64,000 nucleotides of DNA from Ascidiella aspersa (Eukaryota): contig OZ004607.1 in NCBI GenBank assembly GCA_963924565.1, forward strand, positions 23,622,001-23,686,000, read 5' to 3'. This document shows positions 11,495 through 63,864 of the stretch, piece by piece. Position 1 is the stretch's first letter; every line of letters begins with the position of its first letter. The position numbers and the translations under genes are program-made. The notes below the pieces were generated by a model. The model saw nothing but the letters and a program-made list of their open reading frames with translations, did not search any database and was not told where the DNA came from.

Positions 11495-14400
11495 ATGTCC
11501 TCGATTGCAAAATCTATGAGTATCTTAATACTCGTATTTCTTGGAATGTGGCATCAAGGTACGTTTTATACTACAGTTTTAAACCTAGGCGTGTTTATGT
11601 CGTGTATAGTTATTCCTAAGTTTAATTAAAAGTGGTTTGTTTTATAATAAAAAAACAGCCCTGTACAACATATACGACCGGCGTACGGCCTACGACGTAT
11701 TTCAAATTCAGTAGTTTAATAATAAATGGTCGCATAGAGGCCGTTCTAGACTTCTAGGGAGCCCAGGCTATGCTATGTTTTTTGCTAACTTTACTATGTT
11801 CTGTTAAAAAATGTATCCAATATTAATTTACTTTGCCCGTTTTAAGGAAATATATTTCGCCCCCAAGCGCACTGCACTGTATGAAATGTTGCATCGTGTC
11901 GCTATCTCATAAGCTCTACAAAGTGAAATTTCTGTTACCGGTAACTTAGACTACGAATGCTAGCAATATGCAAATCTCGTTTATGCACCCATTGTGCCTC
12001 GTATTCTTTTAAATTAAAAGCCAATTTAAACCAGATAAAATTCGATTTACACTAAATCTTTAACTTAAAGACACTTGGAAGCCCAAAAACGAAAAAAAAT
12101 CCGGAGAGTTTTGTTAATATTCTGCAAATGTCTACATAGCCGTTTTTCGGTCTAAAGTTTTACCTGCGTTTATACTGCTACGTAATACCAAGTAAGTTTT
12201 CGCTATCTTAATTTATAAACAAATGATATCAAAAACACTGTATTCTTCAAGCAGACATTACGAAAGCGCTCGATTTAGCATTTTAGAACGAATAAAACAA
12301 ATTGGACTTTTGGTCATCGCAACTTCCGGCGTTTAAAAGCTTTTTGCACATTCATCAAAGTTATGCTTGCTATGGCAATTGTGATCACGCAGTCAATGTT
12401 TAAATTACGATTTAGGGTTTGCAGATACAAATTGCCATGTTTAACAAAAATGTGGGTAGCTCGGATTGCAGACTACACAGGCTTATACTGATAAATAACA
12501 TGAAGGCCTTATTTATGACTCCAGTGTTACAGGCAATGACTAAATTTGCTTCACAAAAGCGAATTTTTTTAGGAGGTTACCCGTTATTATCATTTTTATC
12601 ACATCTCGTATTGCAAAATTCACACATGTAAAATTGTAGCGTTTCTTATAATTATAATCCTTTGTGTTTTTTTACAAAGCACGTACTAATATGGCCGGTT
12701 GATTTGGTAAACATTTAACATCTAACGATTACTAAACTGTGTGAAATATTCAACTATCAACTTTCCATTAGTGACTTAGTCCGTTTTGTGCTTCTATGCA
12801 TTTAAGGAGAAATGACATGTTGAGATTTTGTTATTAAATCGCAAAAATGCTAAGTCTGCGAACAACAACTTATCGGATTATTCTGGCTCCCTCGGGGCCC
12901 TTTTATTTCTTACGCCCCGAAGTGGAAATTGTTTCTGTCAATATTATCGAAGCGCTTGAAGATTCCCTGAAATTCAATATTGCGGAGCTTGTTCCATTGT
13001 TTACGATCGACCCAATGTTAAAGCCCAGCCGAGACACGCGCCACCGTGCAATCGCTGATTAGTTTTGCTTGGAATTTCTGATCGATCCATATGGCGGTCG
13101 AGTAAAAGGCTCTGCTCCCTGCAAACAATTTCCCATTTTGAGATTAGTGTTTAACTCAAATTGTTTTCCCCTTGGCATTGTAAGAGCTTATAGTTTGTTT
13201 CAAAGCTTCTGTAATTATGGGGGAAATCGTATTTTGGCAAAAATCACGCAAGACCAAATGCTTTCTAGGCCCAGAGTATTTTAATCACCACCATTTGAGA
13301 ATACAATTCCTATCTTATTAACGTTTATATTATAACGTAAATTATATATTCGTTAAAGCAAAAAGGGTCAAACGTTTTAGAAAAATATATCGATATTTCG
13401 ATCCACCCCATTAACGCCGTTCGAATTCGAATTAATTATAATTATTGGTAATTATAATTAAAAAAAATTGTTAATAACAAGCACAAATAGTGTTTCTGGA
13501 AACTTATTTTTGTTTACCTTGTTTGTCCTATAGTTTCTTCCGCAGCTGTGCTTTCTGTTCTGCCTTCATCAGTTACAAGGATTGTTGGATCTCAGGCTGT
13601 TTTTGAGGTAAAACTCTCGTAAACTAATTTTCTAGAATCTAGATCGTGAATGCCAAATCATTTTTAAACAATTGCTTTTCGACAGGGTCGTGACTCGTAA
13701 AAGGCTTCTTAAGGCTGTTTTGTGTTAGATTTGTTATAACAAACCGCCTTCTTCCCTTTCCGCAAGGCACTTTACCTGTTTTTCTCTATTGACAAATACT
13801 TTAAAGTAGTTACTAGTAAAAAACGTATGTTACAAGAATCTTCCCTCTAACGGTAAATTTGTCTTGTTTTGATCAATTGTGTATGTAATGTGTTTGATTA
13901 AGGCAGTAGAAATTTAAAATAGTTCATGGCACCCCTGCTCGTGTTCAACTAACCGATTATGCAATACGAATTTAATTAATCAAAATGGGCCAAATCCATG
14001 AACGATTATGTTGCAATCTACTATTGGTTGCGAAAGGGCAAGGTGTATCAAGGCTATATAATGCAGGCAACTGACTTCACAATGTATGTCAATTTCACCA
14101 AAAACAAGAGTTAAAATAAAACATAAATGTAATGTTTAACTTTTGGATCATTAAAGTGTGCTGTCCACCTCCAGAAGTTTATTGCTAGGCATCCAAACAA
14201 TCTTTTCTATGGTCACAAAATGGTCATTTTATATATAAACTGTTGCTACCAGGCATAATATTCAATAACGTTAATTTCCAGAGGGACAGTTTTTGATTGG
14301 TCTTTTCAGGTTCATTATTCAAGATATGTGATATTGTTGTAGTTTGTTTTGAATGTAGCGGTGAACGCACTAACTATCTTGACAAGTCCTTGCAATTTCT

Positions 14401-23700: not shown

Positions 23701-26700
23701 TTTTAAGCCATACACAAGTGTTCGGTACTTTAGCATAATGTTTGCTTAATCTTACATAACTCTGCTATCAAACGTCTGGCAGATACATTTTTGTGTAGAT
23801 TATTGGTTGTTAATCTGGGGGTCTCGGTGTTCGCCGTGTACTATTTGCTAAACAAAAATTAACAAGAAAAGACAAGCAACATAAATATTTAGAAGTAGAA
23901 GGATTAGCAACAACCACCAGTCTAACAATTAATTTTGAGACACTCGATGGGGGAGAATTTTTTGTACTAATATATTTTTTCCGTTCTAGTGCTAATACCG
24001 TTTTTTGTTTGTTTTTCTCAGGGTTTAACTCATTGGCGTATCCAGGGGATTAGGGGGTTCGGATCTCCCTTTTTGTAAGTGCTATTATTACTTTTTGTTC
24101 GCTTTTGTCAGTATTCAACTCACTGTCCAAAGCGGCAACGTTTTGGAATATAATTAGGTCACGCGTCTTAAGATGATGCGAAACCAAAACAAACGTAGAA
24201 CATAAACGCCATCTTTAATCTCTTCTTTGCATCTGGGTCGACCGTAGACGCCGGATATTTTTTCTCTGTGGCATTTTTCTATTTGTTCAGGTTGGCTGAT
24301 CGACAAGTGTGTATTCGACACATCAGAGAATAGAAAAGTTAAATCTGTACGCAGAAAGAATTTTTCAATGAAAAAGGAGTTATTGTTCCCAGAGTAAAAA
24401 AGGACAGTACGCGATTGACAACAATAAATCAAGCCTTCTTTCTTTTTTTTCGTTAAAACGTCCAGTTAGGCGCAGTTAGTGTTTCTGGCTTTTCTCTGTC
24501 TGCCCTATAATCCGGTGTTGTTTTAACAACAGCATTTTTTTAACTGAAACAAATTATCCGAGAATATGGTCTGTGTTCTGACTATCGTGGGCGTATTTTA
24601 ATTTTATCTTAACAGCAGCTTGGATTTTAGCTAACTTGACACACATATGCGATGCATATGTTGCGATAATCGTGGCATAATCACAACCGGGGAAAAAAGC
24701 GTATTTTCATTTTATGTCAACCGCAGCTTGGATTTTTAGCTAACTTCACACACATATGCGATGCATATGTTGCGATAATCGTGGCATAATCACAACCGGG
24801 GAAAATATTTTCGTTTCGTTTTGCAGGTGGTGAAAGGTGTGCTTTTAGTTTAACGTGGTCCGAAATGGAACTTTAGAAACTGCTTTTGATAGTGGAGTTG
24901 TGTATGCACCAAAATCAATCAAACATATTTCGCGCACTAAACAATTTCGCAGCTGGTGCCTGACGTGTAGGCGGGTGTTGCTCTTCGGGCGGATATCAAT
25001 TAAATCAACACATTTGAATGTTTCAAAACTTTAAAACATCCATAAATCTTGATAACTGTCTGATTGCCAGTTTTTGCTATCTACATGGGTGTATTTGAAC
25101 AATGAGTATGTAAAAACAATAAATGGTAAATAAATCGAAAAAAAAGTTAAAATTTGGCGACTTTTTGAGAACCTTTATACTAACCATAGAAAGTTTGGAA
25201 TCCTCTGTTCCACGGCAAATATTCGTTCTTGTAAAATCCCAAATGCCACTTTCCCACCATATGCGTCCGGTAACCGCATTTGCGCAATTGCTGCGGCAAG
25301 ATCACGTTGTCAAGAGGCAAGGCATTGGGTTGTCGTCCTTTTATGACGCCGTGCGACAATCCTGTGTGAATCTGCAAACAGTGTTTTCGCTGAAGAATAA
25401 ATACACTAGCGAACTCTTAAATATGTGCGAGTGGTTTACAGACTAATAGTTGCTAAGCGCAAAAAAATGCGTTTATTTTATGTAAACTGCATAGTATTGA
25501 ATTAGTATGCATGGCGCCTTTTTAAAAATAATATATTTAAAACTGTCTAAAACATACTGTAAAATCGATAAGTTCGCGTGAATCGCGAATTGTTTTTTTT
25601 TGCATAGAAAAAAGTTCGTAAAAAAATATTTTTTGGGCATGTATTGGTGCAACCTCCCCTAAATTTTACTTTGATAAGAAACTCATCAGGGAACTGGCTC
25701 TGCGAGCTTTTTCACTTTAATGAAGCAACGATCCGGTTGAAATTCCCACCACTTCCATGTCCACCTATATACCTAACCCTTATATATTTCGTCTAGCCTA
25801 CATATTTACCCCCTAGAAACTTTTGGTAATTTTTGAAAATAAGTTATTTGTATTAGCAATAGGCATACACGCGGGCACTTTAGACATAAATACGCGCCAC
25901 CCATTACAAATTAATCAGACTGAGACATTTACATGTAGTTTCTCGTGTGTTAAGGACGATTGTAAAATTACTCTATTGTTGTTCTGTTAAAAGTATGTCG
26001 CGAAATATTTAAGATATGTTTAGTGTGCCGAGAGCCAACAAAGTTTGGGAACCACTGCCCTAGATTTATTGAAAAATATAAAAAATTGTGGAATAACTTT
26101 AGCACTATTGTAGACTGTTTTTAAATACCTCATATCTACCACTCATCAGTTGACTTCTTGACGGGGAACAAATTGGCTGGACATAGTATTTATCCAAAAT
26201 AACTCCATTTTCTAAAATTACATACAATCGTTTAACAATTACTCTTATTAGCAAAACAACATAAGACGTGGATAACAGAGACTTCAAAAAGTAGAAATAA
26301 TAATGTGATGCAACCTAATCTAACCAAAATCTGTTCAAATAACTACTAGACAGTTTTATTACTCTTTCTTATGGAGTCGCCGGGTTTTTCTGAAAGTTAC
26401 TGTTTAATATTTTTACTGATCAGGTTATGGCTTTAATAACCGAAATTGGCGCTATAATTTTTTACAGCCAATCTTACTTGCTAAGATGTCCAAATATGGA
26501 GTTTGCATTTGCGAATGGTGTGATCTGGCATTGTAACCGATGTCGTTGTAGCCGTAGTCATCGGCCATGACAAATACCACATGAGGACGACGCGTCGATT
26601 CCTTTCGCCGTCTTTTTCGCCACCTCTTATCCCCGCCCTTACAGGAGACGCGATAAAAAAGACTTAAAGTGGCGAAAAACACAAATATCCTGACGCTAAC

Positions 26701-44800: not shown

Positions 44801-47800
44801 CAAGTCAGTTTGAGGCTAAATTAAAACTGAGGATTTGTTGCACCACTTGTTTAATATAAATAAATAGTTTAAATTGAGTTTTACAATGCGACACTAAATT
44901 CTCAAGGCTTTTTTAAGGCTTTCATGATCTCGCTCTACTTAGTAAGCCAGAATTCTCAACGCGTTTAACTTTTGCTTTTATTTAAACAAGTGTTAGTTAA
45001 TTCGAAAGAATAAAATTAAGTGTTAGTTTATTTGAAAGAATAATATCCACTAAATAATATTAAAAATAAAAGACCAAATCAAAATTCAATGAGATTTTTT
45101 GTATTGGCCACGAAAATTTCGATGCGTTATGCAAATGTGCTGAAAAGTGTTTTGAAACTTACTCGAGTACTACAGAGAAGATCAATGTATTTAGTCTAAC
45201 ACCGGTCCGTTATTTGTAAAGTTTACCAATCAAAGCTAAGATGAATGCCTTCGATAAAAAAGTAACTTTGTGATGTGCTTTAAGCTAAAGGCGAGTTCTA
45301 CATTCAATAAATCTCGTAATTTCGTGCTTTTTTGAAACGCTAAAGACTGTGTAGTCATTTTGTAATAAGTTGCGTTTGTAAGAAAACAAAAGTAAGGTAA
45401 GTTAAAATAAGGAAAATTGTAAACTTTTGGTTTATAAAAAATGCCTCAAGTTATAAGGTTTAAACGGATGAGTCGGGATAGTAATATTAAGGATTTTTTG
45501 TGAATATTCATTATAAAGTTGAACCGTTTTAGAAGATAAAAAACTCCGGTCAGTTCAATTATAAAAGTGTTCAAAGTAGACTACCCAAACCAATGTATTC
45601 TATAATATTAGGTTCCTAATCTGGAATAACGAATCCTAGTAAATTTTATATAATTCTAAATTTAAATTCTAATTTATAAGGTATACCGTTTGGTGGAAAA
45701 AAATGCCAATTAATGCATTTTGCAACAAAAAAATTGCCACTGGTTAAAATTTTAAACTATGGTCATTTGAAGACATGTATATAATTTTTGTTAAACTGCC
45801 TTGATTTTGTTTGGGTTAGGGATTATTCTTAATATACCCTACAGCTACAGGGCCCACAGTCACAGGAACAAATTGCAAAACAATTTCCTATCATGCGTAT
45901 ATTGTAATAAAAAAAACCTCTTGAATGTTGAACATTTTTTACAACTGCCATTAGAAGCAGTTGTGTTTAATGTTTTGCCAATATAGTGAGTACAATGCAA
46001 CACCACACAATGAACTCTTCAATTCGGTCATGTATATTAAAACATTGCTGTTTTTCAGTTTAACTTTTTTTACTAAAGTGATTTGTTAGGCAGTAAAATA
46101 ATGTAGCCTACTGCAAAGAATACAACATACTATTGCCATAACCAAAACTTGACAATTACGTAATGCATAACCTCGCTGAATTGGCATGAAGTTGACCTTA
46201 GGTAACCCTGTAGCGTATTTTGTCCAAGGCAAGCACATTTAACTATGGAATGTTGCTTTGGCAACTTCACGCAGTTAAGAAATTTCTGAACTCTGAACCT
46301 GGCGTTACACGTTAGTCGCTCCCCTAAAACGCTTGATTGACACTTAATTATTAGACGAACGTTATCGCGAGACGCGTAATTGGTCGCCCGAAAAACGCTG
46401 ACACTGCACTACCAGGTTTCATTTAAAGCAAGCATTATGAACGTGTCGCCGCAGCGACAGGCCTTTATCTATACACTTGCCAATAGCGTTTGTACAATTA
46501 GACGCAATCGTCGGCGGTAAAACATTAAATTATATAGGTCCAATACCCCGAAATAAACGGCAGAATTGGATACGAATCTCATTTGGATTCGGAACTAATG
46601 ATTCGATATTGTACTTTGAACATCCCTAGTCATAACTTAAAAAACAACAAACAAAGGCATGATACTAATACCAGGTTATTGCCCAACATTAATATTTTGT
46701 CCATAAAGTGCAAGTAAAACACAGTATACTCTTCACAAATTATATCTGTTATGTATAACATCATTGTGTATTAGTTGGACTTTATTACAAACGTGCAGAG
46801 AATACTGGTTACAACAGCCAGCAATGCTTTACCATCGCTTGACAATTACGATGTGTCTAAGCTTACTGGATATTGGCCTACGGTTGACCTTGAATAAACC
46901 CGTAGCGTATTTTATACGAGGCCAGCGCGTTTGACGATCTCTGGACCTAGATTACACATAGGCCGTTAGCCCAATAATAACTGATTGACACTCCATAATG
47001 ACTATGCAAAGGTTAACGTCAAATAATTGGTTGTCCGAAAAAACGCTGGCAGCAATCGCATGACAACAGTCAAAGCAAGGGCCCTAAATGTTTCCACATA
47101 CAGACCTTATCCAAAATTTTACTTGCCCATTTACAATTAGGCACAACCAAAGAAAAAAAACAGCTGAAGAGAAAAAGATTCGGCACAACGAAAAAGGTTC
47201 GGAAAAAAGAAAAAAGACTCGGCGACACAGAGATATCCGGTGTGGCAATTATTCGTCGTTGTATTAACGCCGCATAGCTGCTGTTTTAAGTATGCCTGGA
47301 GCAAAAAGCACCTCAGCTGTGTGGCAGTACTTTAAAGTCAATCCCACAGATAGTAGCAAAGCAATATGTTCACTTTGTCCAGCAGTGATAAGCCGTGGAA
47401 GAAGCAGCTCGACATATACGACATCCTCTCTTAGAAAACATTTAACTAGACATAGCATTAAATTGGAAAATAGTGTTTTGAATGCTGCTACTTTGCAATC
47501 ACCAGGAGCACACCATTTCCCATTAAAAAGAAAGCGGCGCAAAAGAGGTGGCTTACTTAAAGACTGCGCCAAACGTCAGTGCACGAAGCCCGAGAAATCG
47601 GATACAAACGAGTTAAATAAGCGTATTGGAGAAATGCTAGCGTTGGAGTATCTGCCGCCGTCATTTATCGAGCACGTCGGCTTTAAGCGAGTAATTGCCA
47701 AGATGCAGCCAGCCTACAATTTACCCTCAAAGGCACATTTTGCTGAAATTGTTTTTCCTGACTTGTACAATAGTGTTCAATGCAAACTGAAGGCCCAATT

Positions 47801-50800
47801 GTCCGAAGCCGCCAGTCCTATTTACGGCAGCGCAGAAATTTGGAGAAGTACCCAGCAAGTCAATTACATGAACCTGGCAGCCCACTTTATGATGTGGCGC
47901 AAAGGGGAACTGCAACAAAAGGTCGTGTTCCTCGCATGCAGTCAGCTTGAAGACAACGACACGGCTGCAAACATGATGGCTGAAATAAGAAATCATGAAA
48001 ATCACTGGAATCTCACATTGGAGGCCCTTGTCACCGATAACTCAAACGTCATAGAAGCGCTATCCAATGGCAGTAAGCTAAGCATCAAAAGCATGGCGCA
48101 CTCCATTGATCTGGTTGTAAAGCAGTGCCTCGCCAACGCGCAATCAACTGTGACCGCCTCGCTTGCGCAAGGAAAGAAGGTGGTCGGCTGCTTTGCTTGC
48201 TCGCCGCGCAATTCGGAAATGCTTAGAAAGCGTCAACGGGCAAACGGAAAGGTTGCTACTGAACTGCTTCAGGCCACGCCTGAGCGCTGGCAGTCACTCA
48301 TTGGAATGCTGGAAAGGCTGATCCTTTTAAAAGAGGACATCGAGGTGCTGTCGGTGGAAGAGCGAACCGAGACCCTCAAACCAGAACATTGGAAAATCAT
48401 CACAGAACTCGTGACCCTGCTAAATGTATTCGCTATTGCCACGAGCGAGTTGTCGACCGAGGGCGCCACCCTGTCCATTGTCTTGCCCCTAAGAAATAGT
48501 CTCCTGCAAAGCATTCGGCAGTTTCTGCTCGACCACGAGATGCACGACAGCACCCGAATGTACGGCATGGGCAGCTTCCTCGCTCATCTGAAAGAGGAAA
48601 TACAAAGAAGGTTTGCCATTCCAGTAATTGGCAAACCCCAGGACCGCGACGCGTTTTTCTACAGCCATGAGATTTACGTGTGTTACGCTCTCGCTGCGAT
48701 GCTGGACCCGCGCGTTAAACTGTCTTGGGCGGCAACCTCGGAGAAAAGTAGAATGACGGACATTTTAGAAACGGCAGCTATGGAATACGTCACGCCAGCC
48801 ACAACATCATCGGCGCAAAAGACCGCATCAAGTTACCATAGATTTGCTTTTAAAAGCTTGAAAAGTGAAGAAACGCAGTTAAAAGGGCACACTGCAAAGC
48901 AGAAACCTCACAGCGTGATACGCCGCCAAGTGGAAAAATACTTGTCCGCGCCAAGGCTCGAGCAGACCAAATGTCCCTTGCAGTTTTGGGCATCGTACCG
49001 CCTTGAATCACTTACTCTGTTTCAGCTTGCAATGAAATACTTGTCCTGTCCGCCTACCAGTGTTTGTTCAGAACAGTTGTTTCACTCGCCTGATACGGTA
49101 TTTTCTCCAATACAAAACAACTTATCAACTTCAAACGTGGAAACTTTAACATTTCTTCACCACAATATACCAAGGCTGAATTTCGACTATTGAAGTTTTC
49201 GTTTTTTCAGAAATCTGGACATCATTAAGGTTCGCAAAAAATCTGTACTGCTGTTTAAGCAAGAATGAGTGAAATTCAGCGTGATAATTTAACATTTTAA
49301 AAAATTTTCGCCCCGTTTTTCGTAAAGCAACCAATACAAACAACTTAGGTTCGTGGTGTTTCTTTTATTAGAAGGGTGTTTAACACGCGATTTTTTTAAA
49401 TTAATTAGCTCCCTAAGTGTTTCATTATACTCAGCCAAATAACTCTTTAGCATGATTTTAAATATTTCTAGAAATGTGAAACTTGATTGGATATATATCC
49501 AACAAGTTGTTACAGAATGTGTTTTCCTAACTATAGCTTTTTATGTAGCAATATATTCTATAGTGTATTGCGATTTCCGAGGTAATTCACGTGTCTTTTA
49601 GCCCTCTTAGCAATTTAAGTTTAAAGAACTTTGTTTTAAAGCTTACTTATCGAAATACTAATTAGGTAACCGGTCAAAATTAGGTAACAAGGTCAAAATT
49701 AGGTAACAAGGTCAAATAACTCACTTTATCCACTGAACCCTTGTTAAACTTGGACTTGCGTTCATCCTTGTTCTGGCACAAACTGAGCTGTTCCGTCTGC
49801 GTTCCGTCACGTCCGTAAAGTACCACGTACACGTCCGCGTCCGTTCCGCTCCCGCTCATCGTACTTGTGTGAACTTAATTAACATTTTTTTTAAATCTAA
49901 GAAACGATTTCAAGCAATTGACTTGCAAAAAAAGGATGCTTAGGAAACATAGCGTGCATTTTATGTTGCAGTATGGCAATCATTTAGAAATAAATCGCCA
50001 TTCTTAGGTAGCAATCGAAAATAAAACTTATGAAAGCAGAGTAAAATAGGGTAAACAGAGGCATACAGATCATGCAACAACTTTCAAATAAAAAAATAAA
50101 TTATCAGGAAACGTCCGTGCAGAACGTGAAGACTCGTCAATGCAAGGCGCCGCCCATAGGCCAACCTGTAATCTCGTAAGGTATTTTGGCCGCGTAGTCG
50201 ACCGTCTCTTCGTTAGAAGGATAGAGCTCGCGTTCAAGCTTTCCGTCGTCTTTGTCAGTCCCCAACCACCGTCCACACGCGAACTTCCACTTTTTGCCGA
50301 GCGAAGGTGCGTCAACCTCGACATACTCAAGGTACCAGCCTGTGCCAACAAGTGAAAAATTAGATCGATTTCTTAAACTAAGCTAACCGTTCGTGTTTAG
50401 TTTGGTAACATTAGTTGTTACAAGAAATCAACACGCGTTAGTCTGCTGTCAAAAACGTGGCATTATTGAAAGCATAACACAGGGTTTCACAGCGTGGAAG
50501 GCTGACATGTAAAGGAAAACAGAAAAATACGTGCATTAAGCAACTGAGTATTTTTTACTATCCTATTTATTTCTGTTTGTCTTGTGCTAACGGGTCTAAA
50601 ATCTGTGCACTGTTTCAGGTCGCAATAATTTACTTACGCTTATTGTACAAGAAACGAAATAATAAAATAACAAATTTATGATGCTTTATTATGTGAAAGT
50701 AGGTATATAATCGACCGACTTTCTATTGTTGTACAACATAGCGTATCGTACCACTTTTCTAAAGCATTTGTTTTAGCAAGAAGCGCAAGTTAATAAATCA

Positions 50801-53800: not shown

Positions 53801-56800
53801 TTATCCCCGACCGCAACCGAACCTGCCAAGCAAAACAAGGAGATAATTGAGTGCTAAAATCCTGATCAAAGGCGCAAAATGATAGAGAAATGAAACAGCA
53901 CAATATAATACTGATTGCGTTTTATGGTTTGTCATATTAATTTATACAGATTGCTTGATAAAAACATACTCTTGCAGTCGTATAAAGAGAAAACATTGTT
54001 TTATTTAGCTGATAAATATGCGGTTGCTACCAGGCATAATATATATACTAAAAAGAAGTTCTTTTGGCATTTATTTGCTGCAAATAAAATAAGTATCAGA
54101 AGAAATTATTTTGTATAACTGATGTTTGATTTATGTTTAATACTTAAAAAAAGGTCGATGTCAATCCGATGCGTGTATACATTTTTAAGGTTAATTTGTG
54201 TTTTTACTTTTCCTTCTCTTTTTCTTCTTGCTTGTTTTTCTGACGAATCTCTGAATCTTGAGGGACTCGAGGAACCATCCCGACCCCACCCCTTTTCCGT
54301 CGTGTCCGATGCGGACCTTCGTAATCGGACCAACGTCCAAAGACTCGATCTATAGAAAATCAACATTTTGTTAATAATAGAATGAGTTGTGAATAAGAGT
54401 GCGATTCGCAAGTACAAAAAAAACGTTGAAACGCGTTTATAGTTCATGAAACAAAAATACTTTGATACTTCCAACGATAACTATTTATAGATTGTAAGCG
54501 TTTAACTTAATAAAATACTGCAGCATATAATAACAAATGACAAAGTTTCTAAGTTTTTCTTTCAAACAATCAATCTTCGAATGGTCTAATACCATGTTCC
54601 TTTGCTATAGCTAACTTGATTTAAAATGGAGGTGAACAAACCTCAAACTTAAAACAACACACAACGAATAAAATGTTGCTACAGCAAGCCACCTTAAATT
54701 TATCGACGGCGCCTCGTTCGAAGTTGTCGGTCTTGTTACGTAATTTTATCGATTCAGATTTTCCGTCCTCGCCGTAAAGCTGAAGCGTGACGTTGGCGTC
54801 GGTTCCGGCATTCATTTTGTCGCCGGTCGTCACAGTAATCTCAAACGGAAGCACTGCATACATCACGCATTATTTACCCAATCAGTATCTCATTTGTGAC
54901 ATAAAGCCTATTTAAAGTGGGACCATATTGTTTACTTTTTTAATGATTTTTGAACGACAATTAAAACAACATTGTTATTACCGCTATATGAAGCTTTTAA
55001 AAGCAAAAACTAGTGAATTTTTTTTACATTTATCCTGTTGTCTCGTTTGAGTGGGATATAGCTCCACTTCAGTTTTCCCGTCTCCCTCATCCGATGCAAG
55101 CCACCTACGGTAAATACAAAAAAGTGTATAAAAAGTTAAAATACCTGATGTTAAACTACATTTACCAAACTTGAGTAGGCATATTAAAAAAAGAGTAAAG
55201 CAAAGATGTTGTGTTGAATGCGAAACTTTTGACGCTTATATTCCCTTGTATATTTTTGACATAAAAGTCCTGTGGCGTCGGTTTCCTCGTCACGAAAAAA
55301 AAGGTATGTCCAAAATTGTACATTATACTATTGATCTTAATTTTTCTTTTTTGAACGCCATTTAATATACACACGTCAATCAAAGGCAGTGATGTTGCCA
55401 ACAAAAATGACTTTTATTATTACATTATTTTCATTTGGAATAATTTTCATGTGGAAATTCTGTCTTCATAGTTCGGCTAAGATTTTAAAGTAACTATAGT
55501 TGAGACGAACTAGTTGCCTGATAGTTGACTTGTATTACATAAAAGCTATAGGCGATTAAACGTGTTAATAAGTTGTAAAGTTTAGTTATAAACATAGACA
55601 AAAAAGTTTTATGAAAGATTTAATGTTTCGCCTAATTTGCAGCTGACGGTTAAAATACCTGAATTGATGTACGTGTACGTTTTACGTGTTAATTAGAAAA
55701 TAGCCAACCGTTTAAATTGAACAAAATAAAATTAGGAACCCTTAGCATGGTCTTGCAGGACATAGCATGGTCTTGCGATTCACTGATTTATGTCGGTGGA
55801 TCTAAAAGTGGGGTCCCCGTATATTGCACAAAGTATGTTTTTTAATTTTCCCGTTTGAAAAAATGATGGGATGCGCCACTATCCAAGGAAGCTTGGACGA
55901 TATGTTGAAAAGTTTGAGGATCATTAATCAGAGGATCATTGATAAGGTATTTTAACAATACCAGGAAAAACTGGTGACGCAAAGTTGCCTTTAACAGATG
56001 GATAAAAGATGATAAAAAAATTCACAGATTTTCACACTAAAATGGTATAATGCTGAAAACTACCTTTATGTGGTTACCTGTGGCAGTTGAATGTATAATG
56101 CATTCCATTTGATGGAACATCAATTTCAATTCCATCCAAGAACCAACCAGCAGCCACGCCACTGTCATCGTGGCCTGTTAAAAAAACGAATAAGTATTTG
56201 CTGGTAGAATCAAGTTACACAGAAGCTTCTCTTACAAATGAATAGCACCTCATATGGGCGGTAACTGACAAGGGAGATCAAATCTGTCTATAAGCAATAA
56301 GCATGCAAACTTCATGCATAGCGCAAACCATATGTACAGTTGTCTTAATTTGAGCTGATATATACTATTAAATAGTTGCGGAGAATGACTAAAAGTTTGG
56401 ATTACGGAGAATGACTAGAAGTTCACGGATTTTTTAAGTAATTTCTAAAGCCATAAGATTCGTTAAAATCGACATTTCGCAGTTTACAGACGTTTCAGCA
56501 ATACCTTATGCCATCATCAGTGTAAACACCCAAGTGAAGATAAAAGCGAAATGTCGACTATAAGTTATTTTGCAAAATTGTGTGTAAATAAAGTGTAAGT
56601 CAATGTGTTTAATACCGATTAGAATGCGTTCCAGCTTGCCGATGTCGACGGCCTCTAGCTTGAAAAGGTCGGTTCTTCCCCGCTCGAACTTGTTGCGAAT
56701 GTTGTCGCTCTGGTGCAGCTTTAGTCGGCCAGTGTCTCCGTTGTTGCCAAATATCTGTGACAAGGGATGACCAATTTAACGACGCATTTAGAAAGTTTTT

Positions 56801-59800
56801 TTTTGAGAGCTACAATGATAGTTTACGAAATCCAGCTCATGGGAGTAAAGTTTTTTTTAACAGAGTTGTTCTCACTGAAAGGACCTGTCCATTGATCTTA
56901 GAAGAAAAATGCAAGTAACCCTGACCGTTTTACTTCAACCCGCCAACAGGGCTCATGCTTGCTTCTAACTTCATTAAAACTTAAAACGTTAAAAAACACT
57001 CTCTTTGAAAACTAATATAAATACAATAAAATCATAATTACCAACTATAAGGGCAACGCACACCGTATGTGACATAATTATATATATATATATATATATA
57101 ATTTGCATGTCTGAGGATGGATTGCCCAACCCACATAGATAAAAAAATCTGCGTAATCTGTTAATCTATGTAATAAGTATTAACACACTCTTACCTGGAC
57201 GTGAACGTCAGCGTCGGTGCCAGCACCTCTGATGTCACCAGTTTTAACCGACACGTGGTACGACGTAGCTGCGTAAAGTCAAGCACGATAATTTGAAAAT
57301 ATTTACAGGCAATTTAAATTGTTTGTTTGACTTACTGTTCAAAAGCTGTGGAGATCCTGATTCAGTCAACTCCCGCACAATCGCGCCGTCATCTTCATCA
57401 GTTGCTAGCCATCTAGTGTTAGCAGGTAATAAATTGAATATTGACATGCGGAGGGCGACATATAGCAGTTGCAAAATAACTGTATTGGTAAGTATGTAAC
57501 TACCTGCGTTAGTTGACTATTTGAAGTGAGGTTATTTTAGCAGGTGTAGCCAACTTATGTTTGATTGCGGTCGACTAAACTATTTTTTAGAGACTAGCGA
57601 TCGACTGGTTCAGTAAAAAAAGTCTCAAGAACACTTATTAAACATTTTGAGCGTTAATTGTCAATCAAGCCAGCGATGGGGGTTATTTTGTTACGTCAAA
57701 AAATAACCTTAAAGATTGCTTTAAAAGGCTTGTCTGGACCTCAATTGGTCATTTTAATGTTTTGCTTGTGTGCGACAGCTACTATAATGTCGTAACGTAA
57801 CACACATTCGACGCGATCAACCAGGTGAAATGTGGCAATCGACCAGTCGATCGCGATCGACGTGTTGGCTACCACTTTATTTAGAGAATTAAAGCATTTC
57901 AAAGTTTTTCATTCTGCGGGATGTACATGGTACAGTGTAGATAATAAAATGCATGTATGGATGACAGCTATTTAAACGCTACCTAAAGAAAAACGGCAAT
58001 ATGCAAAAAAATAATTTAAAGGTAATTAGAACCAGAAACCTGGGCACAAATATATATAAGGCGGCAAGTGTATTAAAACAACTTTTTTCTACAGCTAAGG
58101 TAAAAGAGAGCCTGTATTTCAAACGATCCATTTTATTTACAAACCTTCCACATGGAAACGTTGTCATAGAACCTTGACTCTCTTCGCGAACTTCAATTCT
58201 TTCTAAGAACCAGCCGCTTGCTAAACAGAATAAAAAGCAAACATTTTTGAAATGCTTTTGCTTGCTGTAAATGGCAGTCGCGCCAGTGAAATTAGTTTTA
58301 TATGTTTTTTATATTGGAAGTTTATATATTATTTTTTTAATTTTGAGCTCTTTAGCACTTACCGACGCCAGAATCGTTGTGTCCGACCTTGACTTTTGTA
58401 ACGTTTTTTAACGTCACGGCTTCGATGACAAACTCGTCTACCTGGAAGTTATAAAACGGATAACTAAAACCGTACAAACAAAATAAAACAAAAATAAACA
58501 TATTAACTCACGCTATTTTTCTCGAACTTGTTGCGACTGTTCTTTGACTTGACGAGGGGACGATCGCCAGTGTCGCCTTGATCGCCATACAAGCAACAGA
58601 AGACGTCGGCGTCGGTGCCGGCCCCACGCTTGTCGCCCGTGACAACGGTCACTAGGTAACGTACCAGAGGTTGTGAGCGCCTTATGGTCGACCCGGTCGC
58701 CGGAAGTTCGCGGATCAGTTCGCCTTCGCTCCTGCGAGCGAGTTATATGAAGTGTTGTAATGGATTAAGTCAATTACTTGACCTAAGTGAACTTCAATAA
58801 TTTAGCAAATGACTCGGGTCGGAATTATATTGTTTTAATTCAATATGTTTTCAATAAAAGCGGCGCTATGTTTTTTTACACATAACACAGTTTGGTTGCT
58901 ATTTCTTTAGGTTTTTGTGGTTCCCATATGCATTTTGTTTCGTGATTGCGATGTATACTTTTGTGCCTTTCGGGGGCTATCAAAATGATCTTGGCAGGCA
59001 CTTGACTTGTTATCTGACGAGAATGACTTGATTCGAGCCTTGGTCGTTCTTACAAACACTTGCTAAAGGCTAACCGGCAAGTTTAAATCAAAGAATTAGA
59101 CAATTCTTCATGCATTGTGCAACGACAAGTAAATCCGGCATGTATAGCAGAACGCACGAATGTCCATGCCGCAACACGAAAAAAATGCTTGGTCGGCGTC
59201 ATTCAATTAGCACTGTCCATCGAAAAAAATGACGTCTTGTACTTACTGGCAGGCTAAACATTAGTAGGTACGAAAAACTATAGGCATTTTCTAGGTTTCT
59301 GAAAAATTACACGTAAAAACGAGAACACAGAGTTAGCCTTACGCGTCCAGCCACTGCTGGCAGTTAAAGGTGTACGCGTTGGCGGAAGAAGACGAAGACT
59401 TTTTGCCAGTCATAACCGGTTCGATCAAGATCTTGTCTAGGTGCCAGCCGGAAAAGGGCCTCGAGTCGTCATGCCAAACCCGAAGCTTGTAAAGTTTGCC
59501 CAGGTCGGGAAAGTCAATCTGCGCGAAACAACACATTACATGCACGAACTCATGCAATACGTTTGTTTACTAATCGCTTGAAAATCAAGGGTTGTTGACT
59601 GTTTGATGCATAATGCGCAAGATATTCGTTCGTTGAACACTAAAAAATCTATCTAAAATTTTATCAAGGTTATAGCTTTCTGTCTGGTTATATTCTGCTG
59701 TGAATAAAACGACTTAATAACAGTCTTATTCAGAAGTCGGAAACCTGTTGCTCTATAGTCGGGGGCGAAAGCCAAAGCGTTTGTTTGGTGAAAACATTTG

Positions 59801-62800: not shown

Positions 62801-63864
62801 ATTTGAACTACATGTCATGTGAGTCTTTCTCTAAATACAATCAACAAAATAGGTAGATTTGAAATTAAATCGAGAAAAAGTAGGTATAAATTTTAGTAAA
62901 AAACAGATGTTTTGATTAAAAATAGGGTGTGGTTTATATCAATGATAAGAGAGAGGCAATTTAAATCAGTTTGGATAAAAAAAGCATTTCGAGCAAATAT
63001 CCATAAGCAAAAATCCTAGAAACCAATGGTCAGTGTTCAGTGTTCACCTATTCGAATCTTTTGCAGCTTTCCCAGGTGCGGACACTCGATCGTGAACGAG
63101 TCCTGTCTTCCCCTCTCGAAGTTGTTGGCGTCGTTGTCGAGCGTCTTCTGTCCCGAGTCTCCCCGGCTGCCAAACAACGTCACGTACACGTTGGCGTCCG
63201 TCCCCGCGCCCCTTTTGTCACCCGTAAACGTGTGGACCACGTAGCTGTTCACTGGAAGCAAGAAAACAATGAGGCGCACATCAAAAGAATAAATTGTTGA
63301 GTAAAATTTTTTGTTGAGTGAAATTGTTGAGTAAAAGGGAAAATTGTTGTTTTTAATATTTAAAACTTTTAAACTGTGAGTTTAAACTTTTAAACTGAAA
63401 GTAATTTTCTTCAGAAAAGAAGCGACAAACTTTGGAACACAATATACGTTTTTTTTAATAATTTCAGTACAAACATCAAAGCCATAATATTCGATAAAAT
63501 CGACATTTCGCAATTTACAGACATTTTATCAATACCTCATGCCATTATCAGTGTAAAAATCAGATAAAAGCGGTAAAACATAAAAATACGTGAAAAGGGA
63601 CAAAAAACAGCAGCAAAACACTGATGATGCCACGAGGTATTGCTGAAACGTCTTTAAATTGCGAAATATCGATTTTATCGAATATTATGACTTTGATATT
63701 TTTACTGAACCGACAAAGATTTAGAGGTTATCCGTACTTTTAGGCCGCGCGAGTGGGTCCTTGCTTCCCATCAGATCTCTGTAGAGCTGTTCGTCGTCGC
63801 TCAGCCACTGGCCACAAGGAAAGAAGATGCGCTGGTTGGGCTTTGACAGATCCACAACAACCAC
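32891..63864 (-). CDS. LOXHD1: Lipoxygenase homology (PLAT) domain-containing protein 1, multi-exon, 5' end outside the window
   Basis: Many GT-AG exons encode 15 complete plus one partial PLAT repeats ([24 protein letters not shown]...F...DLG.L.K.RIGHD..G...GW.L..V...F.C.RWL...E.DG...REL). There is a Lys-rich insert [11 protein letters not shown] (~54207-54240) inside one repeat and a divergent penultimate repeat. The final repeat [48 protein letters not shown] resembles vertebrate LOXHD1 as recalled. Last exon 33061-32891 ends VILSSVN*. Confidence 0.92.
42097..42590 (-). CDS. Probable alternative terminal exon of LOXHD1 (poly-Ser plus acidic tail)
   Basis: Stop-free Ser- then Asp/Glu-rich frame in the intron between the exons ending at ~43907 and starting at 40071. 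Tandem GAG/CAG acceptors (exon start 42590 or 42587) are phase 1, matching the upstream donor AGG A|gtaggt. Ends TAA at 42097; AATAAA (- strand) at 41452-41457. Confidence 0.55.
45960..47150. repeat. Old direct duplication (~45960-46510 and ~46685-47150) upstream of the ZBED-like ORF
   Basis: Colinear shared blocks cttgacaattacg, gttgacctt, gtagcgtatttt, tgattgacact, taattggt.g.ccgaaaaa(a)cgctg, aaagcaag, tacaattag.c.caa. Confidence 0.75.
47292..49193 (+). CDS. BED zinc finger / hAT transposase-derived protein (ZBED-like, 633 aa), nested antisense in a LOXHD1 intron
   Basis: N-terminal BED finger [21 protein letters not shown], basic NLS-like KRKRRKR, hAT core (VTDN, AHSIDL, ERWQS, LDPRVK) and C-terminal hAT dimerisation region ([34 protein letters not shown]). 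Uninterrupted ORF inside intron 44711-49724. Confidence 0.9.
   Translation: MPGAKSTSAVWQYFKVNPTDSSKAICSLCPAVISRGRSSSTYTTSSLRKHLTRHSIKLENSVLNAATLQSPGAHHFPLKRKRRKRGGLLKDCAKRQCTKPEKSDTNELNKRIGEMLALEYLPPSFIEHVGFKRVIAKMQPAYNLPSKAHFAEIVFPDLYNSVQCKLKAQLSEAASPIYGSAEIWRSTQQVNYMNLAAHFMMWRKGELQQKVVFLACSQLEDNDTAANMMAEIRNHENHWNLTLEALVTDNSNVIEALSNGSKLSIKSMAHSIDLVVKQCLANAQSTVTASLAQGKKVVGCFACSPRNSEMLRKRQRANGKVATELLQATPERWQSLIGMLERLILLKEDIEVLSVEERTETLKPEHWKIITELVTLLNVFAIATSELSTEGATLSIVLPLRNSLLQSIRQFLLDHEMHDSTRMYGMGSFLAHLKEEIQRRFAIPVIGKPQDRDAFFYSHEIYVCYALAAMLDPRVKLSWAATSEKSRMTDILETAAMEYVTPATTSSAQKTASSYHRFAFKSLKSEETQLKGHTAKQKPHSVIRRQVEKYLSAPRLEQTKCPLQFWASYRLESLTLFQLAMKYLSCPPTSVCSEQLFHSPDTVFSPIQNNLSTSNVETLTFLHHNIPRLNFDY
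49660..49716. repeat. Minisatellite, 3 x 19 bp
   Basis: aattaggtaac(cg/aa)gtcaa-type unit repeated three times, ending 8 bp from a LOXHD1 splice donor (49724). Confidence 0.9.
52021..52300. mobile_element. tRNA-derived (SINE-like) repeat with two head-to-head tRNA-like units
   Basis: + unit 52139-52213 has A box tggcttagtcgg, B box gagttcgaacc and a T5 run. The - unit has an inverted T-arm/tail (43-nt inverted repeat 52021-52063 / 52182-52224, 6 mismatches). Related copies at ~7260-7473 and ~14690-14740. Confidence 0.75.
56482..56527 (-). ncRNA. Minimal type I hammerhead ribozyme motif (Penelope-like element/retrozyme type)
   Basis: Minus strand reads GUUUACA-CUGAUGA-UGGCAUAAGGUAUUGCU-GAAAC-GUC-UGUAAAC: perfect 7-bp stem I, intact core, stem II GGCA/UGCU and palindromic ACGU minimal stem III. 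Confidence 0.8.
57077..57100. repeat. (TA)n microsatellite
   Basis: Uninterrupted tatata run. Confidence 0.9.
57541..57877. mobile_element. hAT-type MITE with gatcgac subterminal repeats
   Basis: caggtgtagccaac ... gttggctaccact, with repeated (g)atcgac motifs at both ends. Confidence 0.65.
63463..63709. repeat. Foldback: two inverted 92-bp copies of the hammerhead-containing repeat
   Basis: Arms 63463-63554 and 63618-63709 are near-perfect reverse complements with a 63-bp spacer. The right arm has ctgatga (63621)..gaaacgtc (63645-63652). Both arms match 56448-56527. Confidence 0.9.

Follow-up and report, generated by a model that had tools for sequence, protein, structure and literature searches.

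A probable Penelope-like element end carrying a minimal hammerhead motif in an intron of an Ascidiella aspersa multi-PLAT gene

Introduction

Small hammerhead ribozymes are carried by Penelope-like elements (PLEs). Passages of PMC4209133 report that minimal hammerhead monomers gave no cleavage and dimers little, the summary in PMC6765202 has the small PLE hammerheads cleaving as dimers, and a section of PMC11167929 describes an Anolis Poseidon ribozyme that did not cleave without the element protein. The insertions follow a scheme of pLTR, inverted copy and tail that is laid out in parts of PMC8557442, where a zinc-finger-like motif is also placed in the linker between reverse transcriptase (RT) and endonuclease (EN) of Neptune and Nematis. 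Earlier publications already cover the PLE stub class, the motif and its need for a dimer, as well as the inverted arm and the tail.

Here we describe a 64,000-nt stretch of the Ascidiella aspersa genome (contig OZ004607.1, positions 23,622,001 to 23,686,000; the window), in which a sequence-only reading had recognized an intronic hammerhead and proposed that it ends a ribozyme-bearing retroelement and could cleave the host pre-mRNA. Sequence comparison and folding models lead us to the view, held with high confidence, that the locus is a 132-bp 5'-truncated and 5'-inverted ribozyme-bearing end of a Penelope-like element, which is likely under neutral decay and unlikely to cut the pre-mRNA of its host gene.

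Results

The minimal type I hammerhead motif lies on the minus strand at 56482..56527 and was assigned from its sequence and from covariation in its family. Parsed by index from 56527 to 56482, it consists of a 7-bp stem I, CUGAUGA, an extra U, a 4-bp stem II around an 8-nt loop, GAAA and an ACGU palindrome that replaces stem III. C17 falls at 56489 and the following U at 56488, with the predicted cut between them, which is the cleavage site that the sequence-only reading had named; its minus-strand account of the core nucleotides, the perfect stem I and the palindrome was likewise exact. Several traits of a PLE minimal hammerhead are present, namely a CUGANGA plus GAAA core, an NUH site, type I topology, an extra nucleotide between 9 and 10.1 (here U) and a palindrome at 15.2-16.2 (here ACGU). 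The closing pair of stem II, 10.1-11.1, is G-U and not the conserved G-C; this pair, and the larger hairpin in which the motif sits (z -3.5 for 131 nt, 0/200 shuffles), had been overlooked in the earlier account, although the pairing and core were as it read them.

The motif pattern matched three times in the window, where shuffled sequence averaged 0.17, which is more than chance would give; the match at 13533, which has no similarity to the family, was rejected as a member. The Rfam check that had been proposed gave no support: hammerhead models matched neither a 5-kb stretch at E<=1 nor 221 nt at E<=10, and five Rfam matches at E 1.1-8.4 were rejected as chance-level. Comparison with phage gave no match.

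The motif is placed in a host intron (56175..56615, minus strand, 441 nt) between two exons of a multi-PLAT gene, as assigned from sequence and reading frame and not from reads. GT stands at 56615 and AG at 56175, and both neighbouring exons continue one PLAT frame, so that the sense-oriented intronic placement originally read was upheld; the LOXHD1 named in that reading is a candidate identity for the gene. Pfam PLAT matched three of the five exon pieces tested, two of them above the curated cut-off. RNA evidence came from one raw-read RNA run, sampled to about 6%, with too few reads to bear on cleavage. Exon reads fit minus-strand transcription, provided that the library is of the usual stranded type, and eight reads splice at 56757 to an exon near 57198. 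No read spans intron 56175-56615. Read ends did not accumulate at the predicted cut, but with zero depth inside the intron and a library of a kind that would hardly show cut ends, this counts as no evidence. Exon depth drops from 8 to 0-1 across the intron and recovers further downstream, a dip of a sort that we do not count as a finding. At 96% likeness the motif is overlapped by a single RNA read, which comes from the opposite strand, and all 27 reads at 56463 carry the letter of another family copy. RNA over the motif derives from other copies, with both strands represented. In a search for an allele lacking the insertion, a contig from a second individual was seen to contain the 3' junction of the insertion, at a depth of 31 versus 96 nearby.

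Other repeats and frames were recorded in the same stretch. A further high-copy repeat lies within the multi-PLAT gene at 57540-57875, where RNA reads on both strands come from other copies. An intact-looking 641-aa frame at 47268-49193 (plus strand, opposite to the PLAT gene) encodes a BED zinc finger and a hAT dimerisation domain, which would make it a hAT transposase or, alternatively, a ZBED-like gene that has been domesticated. The remaining repeats comprise a 226-bp inverted repeat at 24591-24816 and dispersed pairs at 7273-7473/52082-52293 and 31837-32027/34109-34299.

The insertion bearing the motif spans 132 bp (56424-56555). Its forward arm (56424..56549, minus strand) is identified, by alignment and by the RT and GIY-YIG sequence upstream in longer copies, as the 5'-truncated 3' end of a Penelope-like element, with the pLTR and part of the tail; it is about 90% identical to the natural copy L006 and has an 11-nt deletion near its end. 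Across a 4-nt overlap (56546-56549) this arm meets a 12-nt inverted arm (56546..56557, plus strand), the exact reverse complement of 56469-56480, which sequence, alignment and predicted folding all indicate. A direct-repeat test yielded an 11-nt target-site duplication whose left copy (56556..56566) shares 2 nt with the inverted arm and is 10/11 identical to the right copy (56413..56423); a direct repeat of 11 nt was reached by 0.5% of mismatched controls. Adjoining the insertion is a 26-bp tandem duplication (56380-56423) that includes a third near-copy of the target-site repeat. A second same-family insertion, recognized by sequence and folding, forms an inverted pair at 63463..63709 within intron 63252-63737, likely of the same gene; the core of its sense arm is broken and that of its antisense arm intact.

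Sister copies share this build. From 74 matches to an anchor placed outside the motif, 23 sharing flanks and the reference L006 were excluded, which left 50 independent arms. An inverted partner accompanies 36 of the 50, and in 25 of those 36 the two ends differ, the longer reaching about 30 nt beyond the shorter. Direct repeats of at least 9 nt flank 34 of 41 inverted loci, versus 9% in mismatched controls. The arm asymmetry, inverted copies and tail agree with the scheme in the cited parts of PMC8557442, and the two end points of the family match two RT start sites given in a section of PMC11167929. One family stub is embedded in a larger repeat that also contains remnants of a hAT transposase (a Pfam match on L024) and is clustered near chromosome ends; this repeat (L003, L004, L007-L013, L019, L023-L025 and L143-L145) accounts for 23 of the 74 anchor matches and is transcribed, 13 RNA reads running into its flank.

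Longer copies tied the motif to coding sequence. Copy L018 extends upstream to an RT, and among 115 RT candidates scored, all five that were at least 65% identical to the L018 RT piece were examined. All five loci are truncated or broken, and in four of them (L051-L054) the same motif follows a GIY-YIG frame, its distance from the frame's end being about 105 nt in L054. Pfam RVT_1 and GIY-YIG matched on the L052-L054 pieces, with both in one frame in L052, GIY-YIG in L054 and RT in L053 above cut-off; the L051 piece gave no RVT_1 or GIY-YIG match. Inspected by eye, the RT-EN linker in the L052 and L054 translations has no zinc-finger-like motif, which points to the Penelope/Poseidon type. Because the same motif lies behind an RT plus GIY-YIG frame in these longer copies, we assign the window stub, on sequence, to the pLTR end of a Penelope-like element that carries an endonuclease and a minimal hammerhead. 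Of the two kinds of element that the sequence-only reading had offered for the terminus, the PLE stood, as an EN+ pLTR, and the retrozyme array did not.

Neither an intact ORF of the window family nor a partial tandem with direct pLTRs around an intact ORF was found among the 115 scored RT candidates. Intact ORFs of 815-848 aa are present in sister families, the nearest about 50% identical to the window family. The sister family at L056 has tandem pLTRs and a frame whose start lies within a motif of the G-C form; in the window copy this frame has a stop in loop II. Comparison of L056:1850-1970 (minus strand) with L006:1529-1650 (plus strand) showed that the downstream pLTR of L056 and the short arms of the window family end at one and the same codon of the ORF start, so that the end points look conserved between two families whose proteins share only about 50% identity. 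Another Penelope-like family, young and with ORFs of 816-843 aa that are near-identical, was seen at L061:1130-1175 (plus strand) and in L058-L060, and forms a tandem array of 2,671-bp period at G000:C9:23483000-23498000. Its hammerhead has a U3-A8 core and a weak stem I, a variant that a passage of PMC4209133 describes for schistosomes.

The stub could also be conceived as one repeat of a non-LTR retrozyme, in which short tandem units would give rise to circular RNAs, and for which the ribozyme type would be the same and for which the preprint 10.64898/2026.07.22.740005, in the part cited here, derives animal retrozymes from pLTRs. The window copy is single, however, and has an inverted arm; no same-strand neighbours lie within 1 kb among the 100 of 205 matches listed; and copies run directly into RT and GIY-YIG sequence. 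On these sequence comparisons a retrozyme is largely refuted and its chance is close to nil, and the pLTR end of a Penelope-like element is retained as the preferred identification.

Genome-wide, hammerhead cores numbered 2,394 compared with 49 in the control, or about 0.5 per 64 kb, and the exact family pattern matched 205 times compared with 0. A genome search for the family gave 673 first-look candidates, of which 40 were scored. A different short hammerhead-like family, with a stem I of TA repeats and arranged in inverted pairs, was noticed at L016:543 (minus strand), L016:637 (plus strand) and L110:741 (plus strand).

A G-U pair at 10.1-11.1 would be expected to lower hammerhead activity. 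In the window family this pair is found in 42 of 46 independent arms, and U11.1 is shared by the four RT-bearing copies whose motif can be read; C at 11.1 was seen in 11 of the 100 matches listed (205 exact matches in all), and sister families contribute 518 matches with C. Decay of CpG in individual copies was rejected as the source of U11.1, as it predicts about equal numbers of C11.1-A12, and a single C-A (L135) was seen beside the 42/46 with U. The missing mirror product argues that the change arose in the master element, and the sequences indicate that the window-family lineage stayed mobile while carrying a wobble where the pair is otherwise highly conserved. The G-U motif is a variant of the PLE minimal hammerhead and is not excluded from the class, G10.1-C11.1 being a conserved trait and not a search descriptor. 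A literature search that included portions of PMC2837043 and PMC544870 gave no measured effect of G-U at this position.

We then considered selection and decay at two levels. Between families, 11 of 13 stem pairs change on both sides (score 0.49, 0/500 shuffles; slid controls 0.04-0.12) in a set of 12 hand-picked, related motifs from this genome. The changes include C3-G8 to U3-A8, and 10 of the 12 representatives have G-C at 10.1-11.1. This covariation indicates, at the level of sequence, that the ribozyme is selected between element families.

Within the window family the picture is that of decay. After 11 of the 50 independent arms, which do not span the motif, were dropped from the core counts, 39 remained. 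Core substitutions in the anchor-chosen arms amounted to 24/422 versus 114/1640 elsewhere (p 0.38), and the core is intact in 19 of 39 arms versus 49-54% expected under neutral decay. Two observations go against neutral decay. The window copy is among the better preserved, in the class of the 7/39 sister arms that keep the whole motif, and core A/T positions changed in 5/268 cases versus 26/646 non-core (p 0.11) or 41/798 (p 0.02), a deficit that reached p 0.0004 in a cruder test with wider flanks; core G/C positions, which include the catalytic G5, G8 and G12, showed no deficit (19/154 versus 37/458 non-core). These counts give no clear sign of selection on the core, and the copies are likely decaying as if neutral. 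The sequence-only reading had looked to genomic copies for stem covariation and core conservation; the stems do covary between families, but cores are not conserved within copies of the window family. G in a TGA context changes far more often (49/245) than other sites, in core and flank alike. Selection against the core, suggested by G-to-A changes at G5, G8 and G12 (19/125), was rejected, non-core G in a TGA context changing as often (30/120).

The same counts bear on whether the host has retained the motif or hairpin as a regulatory element tuning splicing or output of the multi-PLAT gene, which we consider highly improbable. The motif is fully intact in spite of about 10% divergence, its seventh stem I pair (G-C) is absent from most sister arms, and the 3' junction in the second individual's contig would fit retention. 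That seventh pair is private to the window copy among the 36 independent arms covering both positions (0/36); L002 also has G-C there. A single extra pair in one copy is no selection signal, however, and the whole motif is kept by 7 of 39 sister arms, so that about one in five is equally intact by chance, and hundreds exist. Neutral decay is retained as the likely course.

Folding was examined for the monomer, the intron and a dimer, with energies that omit tertiary contacts and proteins. The window monomer cannot form stem III. Whole-intron folding predicts pairing of the inverted arm with the 3' flank (clamp P 0.99-1.0) and mispairing of the core with the cut site (P 0.97-0.98). A double hammerhead was predicted at -16.7 kcal/mol versus -23.0 kcal/mol for two monomers of the bare motif, a cost of 6 kcal/mol that rises to 16 kcal/mol with flanks. 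The inverted pair at 63463-63709, whose sense arm is the sole further sense-strand copy found in the gene, makes a poor partner: it folds into a -118 kcal/mol hairpin, with the broken sense core inside 250 nt of hairpin. Given the missing stem III, the predicted clamp, the broken core in the other copy and a related ribozyme that needs protein, the models make cleavage of the host pre-mRNA by the window stub unlikely. The cleavage originally proposed is thus not borne out, the neutral decay of the family adding to the case against it.

Low-level cleavage of the host pre-mRNA in trans, by ACGU pairing with the RNA of another copy and perhaps with help from a sister-family protein on the tail region, has a small chance of being correct. 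It would draw on an intact, sense-oriented core and stems, on RNA of other copies on both strands (the 27/27 reads at 56463 and the 13 reads into the flank of the chromosome-end repeat), on sister families with intact 815-848 aa ORFs and on the protein-assisted cleavage described in a section of PMC11167929. For the strands to swap, however, a stem of 7 bp and a clamp of 12 bp would both have to come apart; the swapped dimer is 16 kcal/mol worse than the monomers; partner RNA is rare, hundreds of copies in 1.2 Gb being represented by about 25 reads; the conserved G10.1-C11.1 is a G-U here; and the window family has no intact ORF among the candidates scored, the nearest intact ORF being about 50% identical. 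Dimer topology further implies that the window core would cut its partner, and that its own bond would need an intact core in that partner. We therefore keep to a stub that likely does not cleave its host transcript.

Discussion

The anatomy of the insertion suggests how it may have formed. The element protein would have nicked the intron, and reverse transcription would have started near the 3' end of the element RNA and stopped after about 125 nt, after which a further product, inverted and 12 nt long, was joined on. Tandem pLTRs of the parent element would let its hammerhead work as a dimer, with probable assistance from the element protein. For the stub alone in a host intron, folding predicts a clamped hairpin in which the core is mispaired, and the stub would leave with the spliced intron.

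A more speculative extension, to which we assign a very small chance, is that orphan intronic stubs are latent, protein-switched ribozymes: on expression of an intact sister element, its protein would bind the pLTR and tail and open the clamp, and the hammerhead would then cut host pre-mRNAs. Were this true, the activity of transposons would be coupled, at hundreds of loci, to the loss of host transcripts, and intronic stubs that cut host RNA when given the element protein would constitute a new route for transposon effects on host genes. The window locus itself is of little weight, being one of thousands of such stubs. The genome, in our view, provides a natural experiment, if a small one, on the extent to which Penelope-like elements depend on the hammerhead they carry: the window family reached at least 200 places with G-U where G-C is nearly universal, and a young family with intact ORFs uses a U3-A8 core.

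The closest described systems agree with the locus in most respects. Like the metazoan PLE minimal hammerheads in the cited passages of PMC4209133, the window motif is of type I, has no stem III, carries a palindrome at 15.2-16.2 and an extra nucleotide between 9 and 10.1, and its family occurs mostly as scattered singles or opposite-strand pairs from truncated elements; unlike them, it has G-U for the highly conserved G10.1-C11.1, and compared with the schistosome examples given there its stem I is longer, at 6-7 bp, and its stem II shorter, at 4 bp. Non-LTR retrozymes, as presented in parts of 10.64898/2026.07.22.740005 (see also PMC7229834), share a type I hammerhead that needs a dimer, whereas the window copy is not tandem and is linked to coding sequence. 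The nearest likeness is to the Penelope/Poseidon EN+ elements described in sections of PMC8557442 and PMC11167929, in which RT is followed by a C-terminal GIY-YIG, the hammerhead lies in a pLTR overlapping the ORF start, and insertions show heavy 5' truncation, an inverted 5' copy and a 30-nt (one-sided 30-40-nt) tail on one arm. The window insertion differs from those in an inverted arm of only 12 nt and, among the candidates scored, in a family without an intact ORF, and otherwise follows the same architecture.
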